Virus record (IMG/VR): IMGVR_UViG_3300029461_000057
DNA: 5,974 nucleotides
From: a virus
Taxonomy: Duplodnaviria; Heunggongvirae; Uroviricota; Caudoviricetes
Strand: one strand, 5' to 3'
Part shown: positions 291-5,974 of the stretch, piece after piece
Numbering within the stretch: the stretch's first letter is position 1
Layout of the letters: each line of letters starts with the position of its first letter
Translations under genes and position numbers: made by a program
Notes under the pieces: generated by a model
Database searches by the model: none
Told to the model about the DNA's origin: nothing
The model's input: the letters and a program-made list of their open reading frames with translations, nothing else

Positions 291-968
291 ATGAATAACA
301 TGACAACGAAAGAGCTTTTGACGGCACTTCCAAAATACAAAAGCCATAAAACAGTTCGCGCCTCAAAAATCAAAGATATCGAAATTATCGCCCTAATGGA
401 TGTGGTCCTTTTTTGCAACATCGAAGTCGTTGAGCCAGAAGGGGTAAAAGTCCATGTTGATAAAATATTTTTGCAAAAACACCGACCAGAAATTGGCGGA
501 TATCTGGTCGCTTATGAGGACGGATCTCTGTCCTATTCACCAGAAAAAACATTTGAAGAAGGCTTTAGTCGGACTAACGACTTCTTCGAAAATGGGGTAT
601 CGCTCAGCATTGAAGGTCACAATGGGGTGACATTCATTACAGCCAGGGACGTAACTATTTCTGCTGGCGGTATCGCTACTCTACAAGAAGAAATCGACCT
701 TGAAGCAGCCGACTTTTCTGACGCGCTGATGTGGCTGAAGGATGGCAAGAAAGTTGCCCGACGCGGGTGGAACGGCGAAAACCAATTCTGCTGGCTGGTT
801 CCTGAAGGACAGTACCCGGCACGAATGGAAGCCATTAAGGGATATTTCCCCGGCGACCTCGTTCCGTATGGTGCTTATTTCGCCTTAAAAAATGCACAAG
901 GTGTAGTTGTTCCGTGGGTTCCTTCTGTAGGCGACTTACTGGCATGTGACTGGTTTGTAGTGGAGTAA
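291..968 (+). CDS. Two-domain hypothetical protein; C-terminal ~80 aa resemble a DUF2829 (Tad2-like) domain, N-terminal ~140 aa unassigned
   Basis: The open frame runs from GTG 123, but ATG 291 is preferred because AGGAAAG (281-287) sits 3-6 nt upstream as a Shine-Dalgarno. Stop TAA at 966-968. C-terminal motifs DALMWLKDGKKVARRGWNG ... PWVPSVGDLLACDWFVV match my recollection of the DUF2829 signature (AL..LK.GKKV.R.GW ... D.LA.DW). Family assignment is from memory, not a search. Confidence 0.75.
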   Translation: MNNMTTKELLTALPKYKSHKTVRASKIKDIEIIALMDVVLFCNIEVVEPEGVKVHVDKIFLQKHRPEIGGYLVAYEDGSLSYSPEKTFEEGFSRTNDFFENGVSLSIEGHNGVTFITARDVTISAGGIATLQEEIDLEAADFSDALMWLKDGKKVARRGWNGENQFCWLVPEGQYPARMEAIKGYFPGDLVPYGAYFALKNAQGVVVPWVPSVGDLLACDWFVVE

Positions 969-974
969 TTTAAC

Positions 975-1757
975 GTGAAAAATACTAAAGCAATTCAATA
1001 CCGCCTGCGTAATGGTCAGAGTGTCGAAGTGACCATCAATAATGATGGTGTGCCTGGCGAAAAGGTTTCGATCTCTGAACTGGCTATCGAAAAAACCATC
1101 ATGTGCCACCTTGGCTTTACTGAAGAAGTGAGCAAAAAGCATGGTGTAGCAATCTGGAGCGCAATGGATACTGGTATGCGCAGATTCATTACTGCTCGTA
1201 CCCCAGGGATGACCATGATGGACCTCATGCAGATTGCGCCGCTGTTTGAATGTGAGCCTTTAGATGTATTCAGCAATCCAGCTATCTGCCAGCAGCTATA
1301 TGGTGAGATGAAACTCGCGGTTACCCCCATTGTGCTGCATGAAGGATCGCTTGCTGGCGTGTGGAAAGTGGAGCGTATTTCAAGCTACATGCCTTTCCAT
1401 GTCAACGGCGTAATCACTGGTGAAAATCAACCTGTTTCCGTTATAAAGTCAGACCTCAAGCGCGCAATTCTTGAAGCAAGTTGTCGAGTTGTCGGCCTGG
1501 GCAAACAGTCTTATGTTTCCTTCCCGGCTGGCCCTGAAGGCCCGGCAGAAATTCTGATTATGGATGCCGATCTGCTCTGGCAAATACAGTTTCTGATTGG
1601 CAAAAGCATCATCCGCGCTGAAGAACTCGATCAGTACATTACCTGCACGATGACGGATGAAGTCAAAAGTGTGGCTATAGCCAATGCCCGGAACCTATGT
1701 CGTGCTGCATTAACAGAACTGCAAGAAAACACCACGGAAGAAGTGGAAAGCGATTAA
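975..1757 (+). CDS. Hypothetical protein (260 aa), no recognisable motif; likely co-transcribed with the upstream gene
   Basis: GTG start at 975 lies 6 nt after the upstream stop, with GGAG (962-965) 9 nt upstream. Uninterrupted 260-codon frame ending TAA 1755-1757, immediately followed by the terminator hairpin. The only antisense ORF (1016..1330) is short and lacks a plausible RBS. Confidence 0.7.
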   Translation: MKNTKAIQYRLRNGQSVEVTINNDGVPGEKVSISELAIEKTIMCHLGFTEEVSKKHGVAIWSAMDTGMRRFITARTPGMTMMDLMQIAPLFECEPLDVFSNPAICQQLYGEMKLAVTPIVLHEGSLAGVWKVERISSYMPFHVNGVITGENQPVSVIKSDLKRAILEASCRVVGLGKQSYVSFPAGPEGPAEILIMDADLLWQIQFLIGKSIIRAEELDQYITCTMTDEVKSVAIANARNLCRAALTELQENTTEEVESD

Positions 1758-1787
1758 AAAAAATCCCGCCGACTGGCGGGATTTCTT
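1756..1787. terminator. Bidirectional rho-independent terminator between convergent operons
   Basis: Perfect 10-bp inverted repeat AAATCCCGCC (1761-1770) / GGCGGGATTT (1775-1784) with 4-nt loop GACT. On the minus-strand transcript the hairpin is followed by an 8-U run (complement of A 1756-1763). On the plus strand it is followed by TTTCTT. It sits exactly between the stop codons at 1755-1757 (+) and 1787-1789 (-). Confidence 0.85.
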
Positions 1788-2098
1788 CAATATACGATCT
1801 GGTCTACATGATCACCAAAATCATCGTCGTCGTCGTCCTCATCGCCACCATCTACTGCTGGCCAATCAACAAACCAGCCAGCGTAAAGATGCAGCGTTCG
1901 GAGAACATCACTTGCGGGAGCATCAAGGGTGTTAACGAATCCCATATAGCTATTGGGATTTGCCCCAGCTATGGCTTCAGCGATCATGTCCTCGGTAATG
2001 TCACCGGAGATAATGCTTAAACGCCCGGAAACTTCTTCATTATCATCAAATTCGATAATGGCATCTCCACCTAATGGCGCTGCGATTTTAATCTGCAT
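1787..2098 (-). CDS. Small highly acidic protein (103 aa) with C-terminal poly-Asp tail; translationally coupled to the upstream large gene
   Basis: ATG at 2096-2098 (minus) is preceded by AAGGAG (complement of 2106-2111) with 7-nt spacing. The start overlaps the last 8 nt of the 995-aa ORF. Stop TGA (1787-1789) abuts the terminator. The protein ends ...DGGDEDDDDDDFGDHVDQIVY. Confidence 0.75.
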   Translation of the reverse strand: MQIKIAAPLGGDAIIEFDDNEEVSGRLSIISGDITEDMIAEAIAGANPNSYMGFVNTLDAPASDVLRTLHLYAGWFVDWPAVDGGDEDDDDDDFGDHVDQIVY

Positions 2099-5075
2099 TA
2101 TTTAGCTCCTTTGCCACACCTAATAACAGTTCCAGCAATCCGTCACCATTCATCAGTGATGCGGCAGCGGCCTCTTTGTCATGATACAACTGAAGAGCCA
2201 TAGAGAATACTTCCGTTGCTGACGTTTTGGAAATAGTCGGTGATTTCTGCCGAATTTTCCCGGTGTTACTTACTGAGGCTGGCGGGTATACCTTCGCCAT
2301 ATAAATATTACTCAATCGAGATCTGAAGCACCATTCAGGCTTGCCACGCCCACCGATATTGACGAAAGATGGCTTATCCCCTTCAACATTGGCCTTCAGG
2401 AATGACCGGGCTTTCTCTAACAAACCAGGGTTACTGTACTCAAGATGATGACCCAGCTCGTGCCACAGTGCACTTGCATTTTCATCGTTCAAATTGACAG
2501 CAACAACACCATTAAGATTTGCATATGCCCTTCCCTGGTGGTGAACTACCTTTGATAAGGTCGATATTTTCCCGCCGGTCAGGCGATAAATATCAGCAAG
2601 TTCCTTGCGCAGGTCTATCCCACCATTCTGTCCAGCGCGGGCTTCTTCCACTTCTTCTGTGATAAAAGAGTCGGCCCACTCAAGAGCTTTTTCTTCAGAT
2701 ACGGATGAGTTTGCGATCGCACTGTTCATGGCAGATAACACTTTCTCGTGGACCGAACCCATACTTCGCTGATTCATTTGCCAGCGTATCTGCGGGTTAT
2801 ATGAGAATCGCTTAAGTAGTTGGTCAAGCTGCTCAAGTTCTTCTTCACTGACATACTTTTTAGCCTCACCAATAATGCCAGGGAGAATATTGCCGTTAGG
2901 ATTAAACGCTCGCGAAAGGAAGAGTTTCAGCGCCCCCATGCCCTCCGATGCTTCAATATCACCAATAACCCGGTTAACAATGGCCGCACTCTTCGGATTA
3001 GCATCCGCCAACGCTCTGGCTACGATTTGCAGGGACGATACGACCTCACGCTGCATATCCGTCCTGATCTCATCAATAAACTCTGGCGTTATGCCGTGCT
3101 CTTTAAGGATATCCCTGCCTTCCGCCGTTACCCCATCGATATCACCGACATGTTTATTAACCCGACTTTGCAATGCCTTAAATGCCTTCAGAATTCCACG
3201 GGCATCATCCGCTTTACTAACGGCCTTCCTGAATGCTGGCAAGAAGTCTGAGTTAACCTCATTTTGTTGATCGGCCCACTGAATGGAGGCTTCTTTCATC
3301 TCGTCCAGAGTCAGATCACCCAACGCGGTATGGTCTGTGAATATGAGCGACAACCTCTGAATCATTTCTGCCAATGGTGATGCCGAATGCGCCGCGCTAA
3401 GGAATGCTTTCACCCTGGTTGGGCGAATGGAAAACCAGTCAATAGCTGGTGGCATATCTCCGTTTTTTATCGCCTGCGCTATCTCATCAAAGCCGTCGCG
3501 CCCAAGGGAGGATGCGTGATTTAACAATCCGCGAAGTAACGAATTGCTGATACCGAATAATCGGCACCATTTATTCACGTCGGCAACAGGCATTCGAACA
3601 AAATGCGCAAGCACTTGTACAAGCTGTTCATCCTGGGGATCTGTACGGGAAAGCAGCCTGATCAGATGAATAATGTCTTTGATGCCGGATGCCCGATGTA
3701 ATAGCAAGCTGGTATATGGAGCAACACCGTTGTAACTACCGCCGGAAACGGACTCGAAAAGACCGCCGGATATCCCTTGCATGCCTTCGTTTTCCAGTTC
3801 CTGAGACACCTGGCGAAGGATATCCTGTAACGACACATCACCACCGCCAAACATATCCCCCAGCGCCTGGCCCTGGTGCTGTAACTCATCATTGATACGT
3901 TGAGCCATCAATTTAAAGGCGGTGGCCATACGCTTCGCGCTACGGTTATTCGCGACGATGAACAACGCGAGTGCTTTCACTTCCGGGGCCGTTTCGCTGA
4001 ACATATCCCCCTGAGCAATAACATCGGTAATATGCTGGCCTGACTCCTTCGATTGCCTTACCAGGTCTACCGCATCTTTCAATGCCGCCAGCGCCTTTTT
4101 ATCGAGGCTATCCGCTGTCTCAATGCCATCAACAATAGTTGTCACAGCCTGCTTGTGCGCTTCTCCTGATAAAGCCTGCATCTGGACAAAATCATTGGCT
4201 GCCGCATTAAGCGCCGTCAGAACATTACGCATATCCGGATCAGGTTCTTCTGCAACCATCCTTACCAGGCGCGCATCCTTATATGCCTTGGCAAAGATCG
4301 CGTTTTGTATACGGTCTACAAGTTGCCGTGTTGGTCGCCCATCTTCAGTTACAAGGCCAGCCGCCTGTGTGGCACCAACTTGCGTCATAAATCCGCGAAT
4401 AAACGCGTCATTACTGCGGCTAAGCAGATCTCCACTTTCTGACGGGTTAAACAACGCCATCATCGCCGGTGTTATGCTGTCGGCATCAACAAAAGCCTTT
4501 TCACTGGCTGCCATTTCCTGGAGATCAGAAATATTTGAGTCCTTGGCAAACTGAACACGGTCAACCTTAGTTAACCGGCGGCGCACCAGTACCGGAGCCG
4601 TCATTGATTCAACCTTTTCAGGAGGTATGCCGAATTCGGTCGCATGTTCAATCAGGTACTCACGATACCGATCCGCATTGCCGTCCTGATAGGCTTTGAT
4701 GATCCCCATGGTCCGTCCATTACCTGACTCAACGGCATTGTCCTCACCAATTATCGGCGCGCCATGGCTGGATAAACCGGAATCAGTAAGCTGAGCAGGC
4801 CGCAAATCTTTGGATATCTGGTTAACCTGAAGAAGGCTGGATGCGCGGGTCCGGTCGCGCGGTTGAAGTTCCTGGGGATAGTCAGGATTAATTTTCCCAT
4901 CCAGAGTATTGGATACCAAAAGAGCTGAGGCATCGACGATATCAAACGCTGTTTTTACCTCGTCTCCCTTCGCTGTCACCACATACGAAACCCGCCCATA
5001 ATCGGGCAGGTTCTTTAGCAGCTCGATCAGCGTTTCTATGCTGGTGGCCATTACCACCTGATCGCTTAAGCTCAT
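2088..5075 (-). CDS. Large multidomain protein (995 aa): N-terminal ParB/sulfiredoxin-like region plus C-terminal HExxH zincin-like metallopeptidase motif; polyvalent-protein-like architecture
   Basis: Single uninterrupted 2988-nt frame with coding-like composition; every overlapping opposite-strand ORF is under 150 aa. Residues ~60-130 read INPDYPQELQPRDRTRASS ... GAPIIGEDNAVESGNGRTMGIIKAY, which parallels the ParB N-domain pattern (P.QPR ... PI.V ... GERR.RA). HELGHH is encoded at 2445-2462 (minus) in the context NASALWHELGHHLEY. The start is ATG 5073-5075, with Met9 at 5049-5051 as an alternative; neither has a strong SD. Confidence 0.9.
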   Translation of the reverse strand: MSLSDQVVMATSIETLIELLKNLPDYGRVSYVVTAKGDEVKTAFDIVDASALLVSNTLDGKINPDYPQELQPRDRTRASSLLQVNQISKDLRPAQLTDSGLSSHGAPIIGEDNAVESGNGRTMGIIKAYQDGNADRYREYLIEHATEFGIPPEKVESMTAPVLVRRRLTKVDRVQFAKDSNISDLQEMAASEKAFVDADSITPAMMALFNPSESGDLLSRSNDAFIRGFMTQVGATQAAGLVTEDGRPTRQLVDRIQNAIFAKAYKDARLVRMVAEEPDPDMRNVLTALNAAANDFVQMQALSGEAHKQAVTTIVDGIETADSLDKKALAALKDAVDLVRQSKESGQHITDVIAQGDMFSETAPEVKALALFIVANNRSAKRMATAFKLMAQRINDELQHQGQALGDMFGGGDVSLQDILRQVSQELENEGMQGISGGLFESVSGGSYNGVAPYTSLLLHRASGIKDIIHLIRLLSRTDPQDEQLVQVLAHFVRMPVADVNKWCRLFGISNSLLRGLLNHASSLGRDGFDEIAQAIKNGDMPPAIDWFSIRPTRVKAFLSAAHSASPLAEMIQRLSLIFTDHTALGDLTLDEMKEASIQWADQQNEVNSDFLPAFRKAVSKADDARGILKAFKALQSRVNKHVGDIDGVTAEGRDILKEHGITPEFIDEIRTDMQREVVSSLQIVARALADANPKSAAIVNRVIGDIEASEGMGALKLFLSRAFNPNGNILPGIIGEAKKYVSEEELEQLDQLLKRFSYNPQIRWQMNQRSMGSVHEKVLSAMNSAIANSSVSEEKALEWADSFITEEVEEARAGQNGGIDLRKELADIYRLTGGKISTLSKVVHHQGRAYANLNGVVAVNLNDENASALWHELGHHLEYSNPGLLEKARSFLKANVEGDKPSFVNIGGRGKPEWCFRSRLSNIYMAKVYPPASVSNTGKIRQKSPTISKTSATEVFSMALQLYHDKEAAAASLMNGDGLLELLLGVAKELNNAD

Positions 5076-5102
5076 CCCTGTTACGCCTTATCCAATGTGC
5101 CG

Positions 5103-5126
5103 CCCCCTACGCTCCTCATAGTGGGG
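5103..5126 (+). other. Candidate imperfect hairpin (7-bp stem with one bulged T, 9-nt loop); possible IS200/IS605 left-end subterminal hairpin
   Basis: CCCCCTA (5103-5109) pairs with TAG(T)GGGG (5119-5126) if T5122 is extrahelical; loop CGCTCCTCA. It lies ~50 nt upstream of the tnpB start, where left-end hairpins of this IS family sit. Weak, judged by eye. Confidence 0.25.
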
Positions 5127-5174
5127 ATATAAGGCACAGTTTTCCTCCCGGCTATTTTTGCTTAAAATAGTGAC

Positions 5175-5974
5175 ATGAAACAACAGGTGTCATTCAAATT
5201 CCGGTTAAAACCAGATGGTCAACAGGAGCGTCAAATGAGGCGCTTTGCCGGAGCTTGTCGTTTCGTTTTCAACCGTGCTCTGGCGCTTCAGAATGAGAAT
5301 CATGAGGCCGGTAAAAAATACATCCCTTACACGAAAATGGCTTCCTGGTTGGTTGAGTGGAAAAAAGACACTGAAACCGAATGGCTTAAAGATTCTCCCT
5401 CACAGCCATTGCAACAGTCACTGAAAGACCTTGAGCGGGCTTACAAAAACTTCTTCCAGAATCGGGCAGCTTTTCCCCGATTCAAAAAGCGGGGACAGAA
5501 TGATGCATTCCGCTACCCGCAGGGTGTTAAGCTCGATCAGGAAAACAGCCGTATTTTTCTGCCGAAACTTGGCTGGATGCGCTACCGGAATAGCCGTCAG
5601 GTCACGGGTATTGTGAAAAATGTTACTGTCAGCCAGTCCTGCGGTAAGTGGTACATCAGTATTCAGACAGAAAGAGAGGTATCCACTCCTGTTCACCCTT
5701 CAGCATCAATGGTCGGACTGGATGCTGGCGTGGCTAAACTCGCCACGCTGTCAGATGGCACAGTCTTTGAACCTGTAAATAGTTTTCAGAAAAACCAGAA
5801 GAAGCTGGCGAGACTTCAGCGACAGTTAAGCCGCAAGGTCAAATTCAGCAACAACTGGCAGAAGCAGAAACGCAAAATACAGCGACTGCATTCCCGTATC
5901 GCAAATATCCGCAGGGACTACCTTCACAAAGTCACAACGACCGTCAGCAAAAACCACGCAATGATTGTCATTGA
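5175..5974 (+). CDS. tnpB: IS200/IS605-family TnpB (RNA-guided endonuclease / OrfB), 5' portion; continues past the window end
   Basis: ATG at 5175-5177 opens a frame that runs to the window edge (266 codons, no stop). Translation MKQQVSFKFRLKPDGQQERQMRRFAGACRFVFNRAL ... MVGLDAGVAKLATLSDG is typical of the TnpB N-terminal region, and GLDAG (5715-5729) is the RuvC-I motif with the catalytic Asp. It is missing from the supplied ORF track only because it has no stop inside the window. Confidence 0.9.
   Translation, partial: MKQQVSFKFRLKPDGQQERQMRRFAGACRFVFNRALALQNENHEAGKKYIPYTKMASWLVEWKKDTETEWLKDSPSQPLQQSLKDLERAYKNFFQNRAAFPRFKKRGQNDAFRYPQGVKLDQENSRIFLPKLGWMRYRNSRQVTGIVKNVTVSQSCGKWYISIQTEREVSTPVHPSASMVGLDAGVAKLATLSDGTVFEPVNSFQKNQKKLARLQRQLSRKVKFSNNWQKQKRKIQRLHSRIANIRRDYLHKVTTTVSKNHAMIVI

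Follow-up and report, generated by a model that had tools for sequence, protein, structure and literature searches.

An IS609-like tnpB element separates ddrA from ddrB in a P1-like phage-plasmid and leaves the ancestral ddrB start in place

The window, the whole stretch of 5,974 nucleotides analyzed here, is part of a P1-like phage-plasmid. Its large minus-strand gene (2088..5075, 995 aa) is, as judged from its ORF, its identity and synteny with P1 and its Pfam match, a full-length ddrB of the late darA antirestriction operon, with its ancestral start. The 5′ 592 nt that were compared are ~97% identical to P1 ddrB at the nucleotide level, and the first 25 residues of the two proteins are the same (MSLSDQVVMATSIETLIELLKNLPD). 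Residues 36-167 of DdrB matched the N-terminal Pfam domain PF18763 ddrB-ParB (E=1.9e-39); near the C-terminus, where no Pfam model matched, the translation contains HELGHH (HExxH), and a C-terminal HExxH zincin metallopeptidase domain of DdrB has been described (PMC5512222). DdrB of P1 is a polyvalent head protein of the Dar antirestriction system (PMC9024508, PMC5512222); its packaging in the virion head and its contribution to DarB incorporation are known for P1 only (PMC9024508). The genes ddrB, ddrA and hxr were scored non-essential in PMC10695390, ddrB being dispensable for plaques.

The last gene of the operon (1787..2098, minus strand) occupies the hxr position and shares 11 nt with the 3′ end of ddrB. 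The order lydA-lydB-hdf-darA-ddrA-ddrB-hxr is common to P1 and to a near-identical plasmid that carries the same insertion as the window, hereafter L001. P1 (NC_005856, ddrB = P1_gp022) thus resembles the window in gene order, in the ATG of ddrB, in the 12-nt spacer that precedes it and in the TAA of ddrA, but it has no IS at the ddrA-ddrB junction, its spacer reads ...ACACGG instead of ...ACAGGG, and downstream of hxr it has IS1 and isaB where the window has a Tad2-like gene. On the other side of ddrB, the window contains on the plus strand the left end of an IS (5092..5174), with a subterminal imperfect palindrome TGTGCC...GGCACA, followed by tnpB (insQ; 5175..5974), which is cut off by the window end and encodes 402 aa in full.

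The earlier note had suggested that this IS removed the native 5′ end of ddrB, first codons and proximal leader included, leaving a fortuitous ATG bounded by a stop of IS origin. We compared the filled site with IS-free relatives: the query 4500-5175 was matched at its positions 1-592 in most of 454 E. coli records and the query 5040-5300 at 1-52. Homology to the IS-free alleles extends through 5091, after which these run on into ddrA. The N-terminus and the upstream sequence through 5091 were identical in ~390 IS-free E. coli records and in P1, and these, together with the Cronobacter phage JK004 (79% identical), have the same ATG, the same spacer length and the same TAA; the comparison also covers 70 IMG/VR loci. 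The ATG and the motif TAAGGCG were present in 80/80 P1-lineage loci from IMG/VR and GTDB (10 with the IS and 70 without). The junction could be read directly, as ...CCTTAT/GCTGCC... in the empty site and ...CCTTAT/CCAATG...GTCAC/GCTGCC... in the filled one, which places the first IS base at 5092. The 16 nt before ddrB and all ddrB codons were therefore left unaltered by the IS. The 12-nt segment 5076..5087 (minus strand, GGCGTAACAGGG) is the native ddrA-ddrB intercistronic spacer: it is identical in IS-free alleles, its length is kept in JK004, and 12 nt is also the annotated distance from the ddrA stop to the ddrB start in P1, in JK004 and in two plasmids that are free of the IS. The junction is different in remoter relatives (Serratia, Pantoea, Citrobacter and another E. 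coli plasmid group), which have a terminator-like hairpin and a ddrA-ddrB gap of 45-100 nt. In favor of the loss of a native 5′ end one could cite the weak SD and the short distance, 17 nt, between the IS end and the ATG. Such a loss is nevertheless scarcely credible, since the ATG, the spacer and the TAA, which is the ddrA stop, are common to IS-free alleles, P1 and the Cronobacter phage, and since the IS starts at 5092; the empty/filled comparison already refutes it. The start is native, and its ATG is neither fortuitous nor the remnant of a longer gene.

The boundary also reveals the origin of the in-frame stop. The TTAT at 5088..5091 (plus strand), delimited by the empty/filled comparison, is an IS609-type target and left cleavage site, and an inferred TAM of TnpB; TTAT is likewise the left cleavage site of IS609 (PMC6906374). 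Read on the minus strand, it is A followed by TAA, that is, the third base of the Ala codon that closes ddrA and then the original ddrA stop. The TAA at 5090-5088 is thus the native ddrA stop, now orphaned, and is flank and not IS sequence. It had been noted earlier that this stop is in frame with the ddrB ORF and lies within or at an IS end; it is indeed in frame, and an IS200/IS605-type end does occur within a few bases, but the stop is outside the IS. The insertion splits the final ddrA codon (GC/A TAA becomes GC/G TGA): the IS right end (...GTCAC, reverse complement GTGAC...) completes the Ala codon, changing GCA to GCG, and provides an immediate TGA. DdrA has 121 aa and ends with ...NIKEAA in the IS-bearing and IS-free forms alike. 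The ends of IS609 (TTAT, TCAN) permit an antisense ...A TAA stop to be exchanged for ...N TGA with no change in the protein.

The element is IS609-like, 1335 bp long, with tnpB as sole transposon gene. Annotation, Pfam and structure matches identify the product as an RNA-guided endonuclease: it has the Pfam domains HTH_OrfB_IS605, OrfB_IS605 and Cas12f1-like_TNB (Zn ribbon), it matched the TnpB structures 8bf8/8ex9/8exa (E=9e-52), and we read its alignment with the top structure match, an AI-designed TnpB-like nuclease, as showing motifs that would fit a D-E-D RuvC triad. A tnpA gene (Y1 transposase) is missing, tnpB being the only long ORF in the 1335 bp, and the IS is for that reason best described as a non-autonomous tnpB-only derivative. 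Like IS609, it lies 3′ of TTAT, with no duplication of the target, and its hairpins are subterminal; unlike IS609, it is without tnpA, and its right end is TCAC versus TCAA in the IS609 copy of PMC6906374. Subterminal imperfect palindromes are present at both ends. As DNA, the left-end stem TGTGCC/GGCACA folds no better than shuffled sequences (z=-1.3), and the right-end hairpin CCACGCCC-TTCG-GGGCGTGG is a strong fold (z=-3.0). A search of curated RNA families for an omega RNA, or for an antisense RNA at the left end, gave only sub-threshold matches; those of the Rfam search over L001 9557-9740 were HgcC (22.6 bits, gathering 50), RAGATH-18 (28.1, gathering 44.9) and sot0042 (17.8, gathering 88).

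We recovered the same 1335-bp insertion with the same junctions in 8/8 IMG/VR IS-bearing loci having both ends, and in L001 (8393-9727). The left-end sequence of the present copy was found at one site only in a set of 5,426 complete E. coli genomes. The same kind of TnpB is known from IS609 and tnpB-only derivatives in P1-like plasmids (insQ in RCS47 and SJ46; an "IS609-like sequence" in pSvP1, PMC6906374), and the same ddrA-ddrB insertion is already annotated in phage RCS47. The insertion is thus ordinary, and the gene that it adjoins is not truncated. Such loci should be annotated with the IS from 5092 and TTAT as flank, the weak ddrB start being the normal state of this operon junction. The importance of the insertion beyond such annotation hygiene is slight.

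The minus strand across the start region reads ...GGATAAGGCGTAACAGGGATGAGCTTAAGCGATCAGGTGGTAATGGCC..., and the native start, annotated in P1, JK004, RCS47 and the IS-free plasmids, is the ATG at 5073..5075 (Met1). Its weak translation signals, pointed out earlier, are real: AGGG at 5079-5076 directly abuts the ATG with zero spacer, and the sole other purine-rich element before Met1 is a weak AAGG at 5089-5086, 10 nt upstream. The calculated anti-SD pairing at this ATG is -4.3 kcal/mol, against -5.9 to -7.9 kcal/mol, at spacers of 3-8 nt, in scanned subsequences of three neighbouring genes. Judging from the IS-free alleles, this weak SD, a TAAGG that overlaps the stop of ddrA, is ancestral; it belongs to an operon junction that is tightly packed and is not a result of the insertion.

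A second Met codon, Met9 at 5051-5049, has GGTGG (5058-5054) 2 nt upstream, as had been reported, and translation could in principle begin there, with codons 1-8 as an untranslated leader. The anti-SD pairing of GGUGG is the stronger one (-7.2 versus -4.3 kcal/mol), and both GGTGG and ATG9 are kept in most alleles, but the spacer is only 0-2 nt (just 2 nt to GGTGG itself), and GGTGG lies in the 5′ arm of a hairpin predicted to have 6 bp, GGUGGU-AAUG-GCCACC (5043..5058, minus strand), whose loop holds AUG9. This hairpin was obtained as both MFE and centroid structure in the IS-bearing and IS-free contexts; its stem bases are nearly invariant among P1-lineage loci, where no compensatory changes were seen. 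Codon 9 is ATT (Ile) in two loci (L056 and L096) that keep Met1 intact, and in one of them, L096, ddrB has no stop across the 750 codons available. Met1 is likelier than Met9 since this stop-free allele has Ile in place of Met9. Moreover, 9-15 residues precede the conserved S-I-x-x-L helix in more distant homologues, against only 3 with a start at Met9, and all annotations use Met1. We thus consider initiation at Met9 very unlikely. Within ddrB codons 2-8, four of the 7 variable sites are at third positions, but this stretch is not long enough for a test of codon-position bias to reach significance. The N-terminus expected from Met1 is (f)M/SLSDQVVMATSIETLIELLK, either (f)MSLSDQVV... or SLSDQVV..., and that from Met9 is (M)ATSIETLIELLK; no DdrB N-terminal peptide is present in the P1 virion proteome supplement of PMC9024508.

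A stop located just before a start with a weak SD is typical of initiation helped by ribosomes terminating upstream. The IS-free ddrA-ddrB junction likewise has a stop 12 nt before a poor-SD start, as in the coupled termination-reinitiation pairs of phage late operons, in which, as here, neighbouring genes overlap or abut. By this analogy, translational coupling of ddrA and ddrB is putative in IS-free alleles, whose arrangement is typical of coupled pairs. Through the insertion, ddrB lost its place next to ddrA, together with any coupling that depended on this place. We found no small ORF that could credibly restore coupling: in the window allele a 31-codon TTG frame ends at the TAA 5088-5090 and a 12-codon ATG frame ends at a TAA at 5081-5083, but neither has an SD. 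Sequestration of the SD by the IS left end was also discarded: CCUUAU of that end is paired with AUAAGG in the predicted MFE structure, but shuffled sequences fold as well (z=-0.97).

The promoter of the operon was not lost to the insertion, as had been envisaged. The LPdar box AAGTTACTT is still present upstream of lydA in L001 (13404-13412), ~5 kb upstream of ddrB, and its distance to ddrB is simply increased by 1335 bp in the IS-bearing form. The earlier note was right that transcripts reaching ddrB must now exit through the IS left end, and any LPdar transcript must now traverse the IS in antisense to reach ddrB. Our preferred reading, to which we assign a probability of about 0.8, is thus that ddrB is intact at its ancestral ATG, that a non-autonomous IS609-like element inserted 3′ of the TTAT on the ddrA end without target duplication, and that in IS-bearing alleles ddrB would still be transcribed from LPdar by antisense read-through of the IS, with translation starting de novo from this same weak site, uncoupled from ddrA. 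Its expression would probably be lower, as ~1.35 kb of untranslated upstream RNA could allow Rho-dependent polarity, and this may be tolerated because ddrB is unnecessary for plaque formation.

Alternatively, ddrB could be driven in IS-bearing alleles by an outward promoter in the IS left end. One sigma-70-like match, ATGACA-18-TATTTT, does face ddrB from the minus strand, where it lies across the start of tnpB (L001 8494-8465, window 5193-5164), but it scores only 9/12, and two matches in this region compare with 1.7 expected from shuffles. The P1 late-promoter box is absent from the IS; the only candidate was a one-mismatch match, AATTTACTT, at L001 9519-9527 on the minus strand, with no -10 after it. 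A constitutive promoter would furthermore mistime ddrB, a late virion gene, and we regard this alternative as improbable.

The insertion was carried by 64 of the ~454 P1-like plasmid records from complete E. coli genomes (~14%). On the ddrB tree, IS-bearing alleles are scattered among IS-free ones and do not form a clade; for almost every IS-bearing allele the nearest ddrB neighbour is IS-free, which rules out a single clonal IS-bearing lineage. The diversity of the IS (pi 1.8%) equals that of its flanks; the insertion is therefore old, and the IS cannot have spread only recently among diverse backbones. We observed no stop in the 5′ 2238 nt of ddrB in any IS-bearing locus, neither stop nor frameshift in 13/13 IS-bearing ddrB 5′ regions examined, and none in tnpB of the IS-bearing loci examined. 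The pN/pS of ddrB was 0.067 in IS-bearing and 0.074 in IS-free alleles. Intactness and pN/pS are weak evidence of ddrB function because recombination could keep a poorly expressed ddrB intact in IS-bearing backgrounds.

These data bear on a stronger version of polarity, in which ddrB and the gene at the hxr position would be effectively silent in IS-bearing alleles and their ORFs kept by recombination. The ~1.35 kb of antisense RNA that now separates the ddrA stop from the start of ddrB, untranslated and without a credible coupling ORF, would favor such silencing, as would the modest C-richness of the minus-strand RNA past the ddrA stop (plus-strand GC skew +0.09 to +0.12, L001 9300-9700), the interspersion of the alleles and the dispensability of ddrB for plaques. 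However, the insertion is old, yet 0/13 of the ddrB 5′ regions beside it have a stop or frameshift, pN/pS is alike with and without the IS, and the search for intrinsic terminators antisense to the IS recovered a single weak terminator-like hairpin on its minus strand, at chance level. Silencing is therefore unlikely in our view. We predict that the insertion uncouples ddrB and the gene at the hxr position from ddrA in ~14% of P1-like plasmids; the packaging of DdrB may be reduced in IS-bearing plasmids, and the DarB-dependent protection from EcoB/EcoK restriction could change with it.

As for the persistence of the insertion, one conjecture, which we find doubtful, is that the IS may be kept because TnpB with an omega RNA cuts the empty ddrA-ddrB junction of competing P1-like elements; if true, the TnpB element would act between related phage-plasmids, as a homing drive or as an exclusion weapon. 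The predicted target, the TAM TTAT followed by GCTGCCTCTTTAATGT... (TTAT-GCTGCCTCTTTAATGTTGGC), was found in empty sites only, and the RuvC motifs of TnpB look intact in our reading of the structure-match alignment. In P1-like phage-plasmids this tnpB-only element is fixed at a single site, and it is under purifying selection (pN/pS 0.17).

The window matched P1-like phage-plasmids of E. coli, ~95-100 kb in size, at 99.4-99.8% identity (30 matches listed). One near-identical plasmid, NZ_CP033848 (L001), carries in order genes for a head processing protein, lysozyme, ssb, a DUF2829 protein and two hypothetical proteins, then a 995-aa gene, insQ/tnpB and ddrA, followed by genes of 639 aa and 200 aa at the darA and hdf positions, respectively, a lydB-like gene and holin. 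This order agrees with the operon of the P1 reference, lydA-lydB-hdf-darA-ddrA-ddrB-hxr, which lies on a single strand, and the 995-aa minus-strand ORF at 2088-5075 is thus ddrB. Its product carries a DdrB-ParB domain at residues 36-167. DdrB of P1 is a head protein of 108.7 kDa belonging to the Dar antirestriction system (PMC9024508; PMC5512222).

A search with window 4500-5175 returned 454 E. coli records, a minority of which matched the full query; the majority matched query positions 1-592 only (window 4500-5091) and then continued into a gene annotated ddrA. With window 5040-5300, 64 records at 80% query coverage or more carried an IS609-like element between ddrA and ddrB (IS+), and nearly all remaining records matched positions 1-52 only (window 5040-5091). 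The junctions were read directly: at the empty site of the IS-free plasmid locus L002, ...CCTGTTACGCCTTAT is immediately followed by GCTGCCTCTTTAATG..., whereas at the filled site ...CCTGTTACGCCTTAT is followed by CCAATGTGCCGCC... on the left and ...GGCGTGGAGGATGTCAC by GCTGCCTCTTTAATG... on the right. Comparison of empty and filled sites revealed no target duplication at the IS junctions, and the boundary is unambiguous. The element extends from window 5092 (L001 8393) to L001 9727, and its length of 1335 bp and its junction were the same in all eight IMG/VR IS+ loci spanning both of its ends. The TTAT flank at 5088-5091 agrees with the published left cleavage site of IS609, TTAT (PMC6906374).

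The in-frame TAA at 5088-5090, which the earlier note had placed within or at the IS end, is native ddrA sequence, because the ddrA CDS ends at the equivalent TAA in IS-free plasmids, P1 and Cronobacter phage JK004, in each case 12 nt from the ddrB start, and because 80/80 P1-lineage loci from IMG/VR and GTDB (70 IS-free and 10 IS+) share the same ATG, 12-nt spacer and TAAGGCG. The CATAAGGCG...ATG stretch was kept in the junction alignment despite 79% overall identity. The native 5' end of ddrB has therefore not been lost to the IS, contrary to what the earlier note had considered possible; IS-free homologues share the upstream sequence through 5091, and all ddrB codons together with 16 nt upstream are ancestral.

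It is the last sense codon of ddrA that is split by the insertion, and the DdrA protein is unchanged. On the minus strand, ddrA ends with AAA GAG GCA GCA TAA in IS-free alleles and with AAA GAG GCA GC/G TGA in IS+ alleles (the slash marking the junction; window 5088-5091 and L001 9724-9730), where GC/A TAA becomes GC/G TGA and the G TGA comes from the IS right end. This end (...GTCAC) restores the last Ala codon and gives an immediate TGA, so that DdrA has 121 aa and the terminus ...NIKEAA in both kinds of allele. Judging from the sequence of IS609-type ends (TTAT target, TCAN right end), the same outcome would be expected wherever an antisense "...A TAA" stop is split after the second codon position.

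The minus strand at the ddrB start reads GGATAAGGCGTAACAGGG-ATG-AGC-TTA-AGC-GAT-CAG-GTG-GTA-ATG-GCC. The earlier note had located the first ATG (5075-5073), Met9 (5051-5049) and the TAA (5090-5088) correctly, and its reading of the start signals as weak also held, although most of the interpretation built on it did not, the start being native and the stop that of ddrA. The best calculated anti-SD pairing upstream of the first ATG is -4.3 kcal/mol, by AAGG at 10 nt, weaker than the -5.9 to -7.9 kcal/mol calculated for three neighbouring genes (spacers of 3-8 nt, as reported for the scanned subsequences). GGTGG does lie 2 nt ahead of Met9, at 5058-5054, and pairs at -7.2 kcal/mol, but its spacing to the AUG is too short. 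In IS+ and IS-free RNA alike, the motif makes up the 5' side of a predicted 6-bp hairpin, GGUGGU-AAUG-GCCACC (5043-5058, minus strand, ddrB codons 6-11), whose loop holds AUG9. The stem bases are near-invariant among P1-lineage loci, in which no compensatory changes were seen, and the JK004 counterpart is a perfect 7-bp palindrome, GGTGGCCATGGCCACC.

Met1 is the ddrB start in every annotation. Codon 9 is ATT (Ile) with Met1 intact in two loci, one of which (L096) is stop-free over the 750 available codons. In Serratia, Pantoea, Citrobacter and a second E. coli plasmid group, 9-15 residues precede a conserved S-I-x-x-L helix, which fits a start at Met1 and not at Met9. Together with the placement of GGTGG in the putative hairpin, these observations support Met1. 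In codons 2-8, four of the seven variable sites are at third positions, which is consistent with coding, in a stretch too short for a test. No N-terminal peptide of DdrB was found in the published P1 virion proteome (PMC9024508).

The junctions of these more distant groups (L007, L008, L009, L011, L012) have a GC-rich, terminator-like hairpin with a T-run 3' of ddrA and a gap of 45-100 nt before ddrB, which in some cases starts with TTG behind a good GGAG SD. Only the P1 lineage has the tight 12-nt junction. With its weak SD overlapping the ddrA stop, this junction looks like a coupled start, and this coupling would be gone in the IS+ allele, where the frame entering TAA 5088-5090 is a 31-codon TTG ORF without SD. 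We found no convincing candidate in the IS for an outward promoter, or on its antisense strand for a terminator. LPdar, the late promoter upstream of lydA and the only one annotated in that P1 operon stretch, was found upstream in L001. In the most economical model, the LPdar transcript would read through the IS and translation would begin de novo at the weak native ddrB site, with ddrB expression probably reduced. A polar effect would be tolerated, since plaque formation requires none of ddrB, ddrA and hxr (PMC10695390).

None of 13 IS+ ddrB 5' regions contained a stop, and ddrB pN/pS was 0.067 in IS+ versus 0.074 in IS-free alleles. IS+ alleles were mixed among IS-free ones in the ddrB tree and not monophyletic, so that recombination, or precise excision by TnpA in trans, weakens intactness and pN/pS as evidence of function. 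Three IS-free IMG/VR loci (L056, L093, L094) have ddrB frameshifts or stops in the first 2.2 kb (codon 517 is the first stop in L056), which may reflect pseudogenes or errors of assembly. None of the IS+ alleles examined was disrupted in this way.

TnpB is all that the element encodes (HTH_OrfB_IS605, OrfB_IS605 and Zn-ribbon domains; E=9e-52 to TnpB structures 8bf8/8ex9/8exa), and tnpA is absent from its 1335 bp. The D-E-D RuvC triad appears intact as read from the alignment to the top match, an AI-designed TnpB-like nuclease. The insertion, present in 64 of ~454 records, is an old polymorphism that has been kept at a single site, because pairwise diversity is the same inside the IS (1.8%, maximum 4.1%) as in its flanks (1.4-2.3%), no complete copy has a disrupted tnpB (pN/pS 0.17) and, in 5,426 complete E. 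coli genomes, the left-end sequence occurs at this site only. In TnpB systems, the TAM would here be TTAT and the guide the right flank (GCTGCCTCTTTAATG...). The inferred target, TTAT plus GCTGCCTCTTTAATG at the ddrA 3' end, exists in IS-free alleles only, as the standard TnpB retention/homing logic would have it.

A related, diverged left end with tnpB (~85% identity from window 5123 onward) occurs at a different site on E. coli P1-like plasmids (27 records, e.g., NZ_AP024520.1 59896-60073) and may be the IS609 reported between pro and lydE (PMC6906374). IS609 or IS609-like insertions in P1-like plasmids have been described (PMC6906374), the present insertion has been annotated before, in phages RCS47 (insQ between DdrB and DdrA) and SJ46, and the annotated ddrB start of P1 is identical; neither the insertion nor the start is thus new in kind.

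At 1757-1790, where the genes 975-1757 (+) and 1787-2098 (-) converge, AAAAAAATCCCGCCGACTGGCGGGATTTCTTC looks like a bidirectional intrinsic terminator closing the darA operon. The 225-aa product of window 291-968 (+) has a Tad2-like domain (Thoeris anti-defense 2, DUF2829; E=1.6e-22) at its C-terminus; lying beside the Dar operon in the region where P1 has IS1 and isaB, this gene may be anti-defence cargo.
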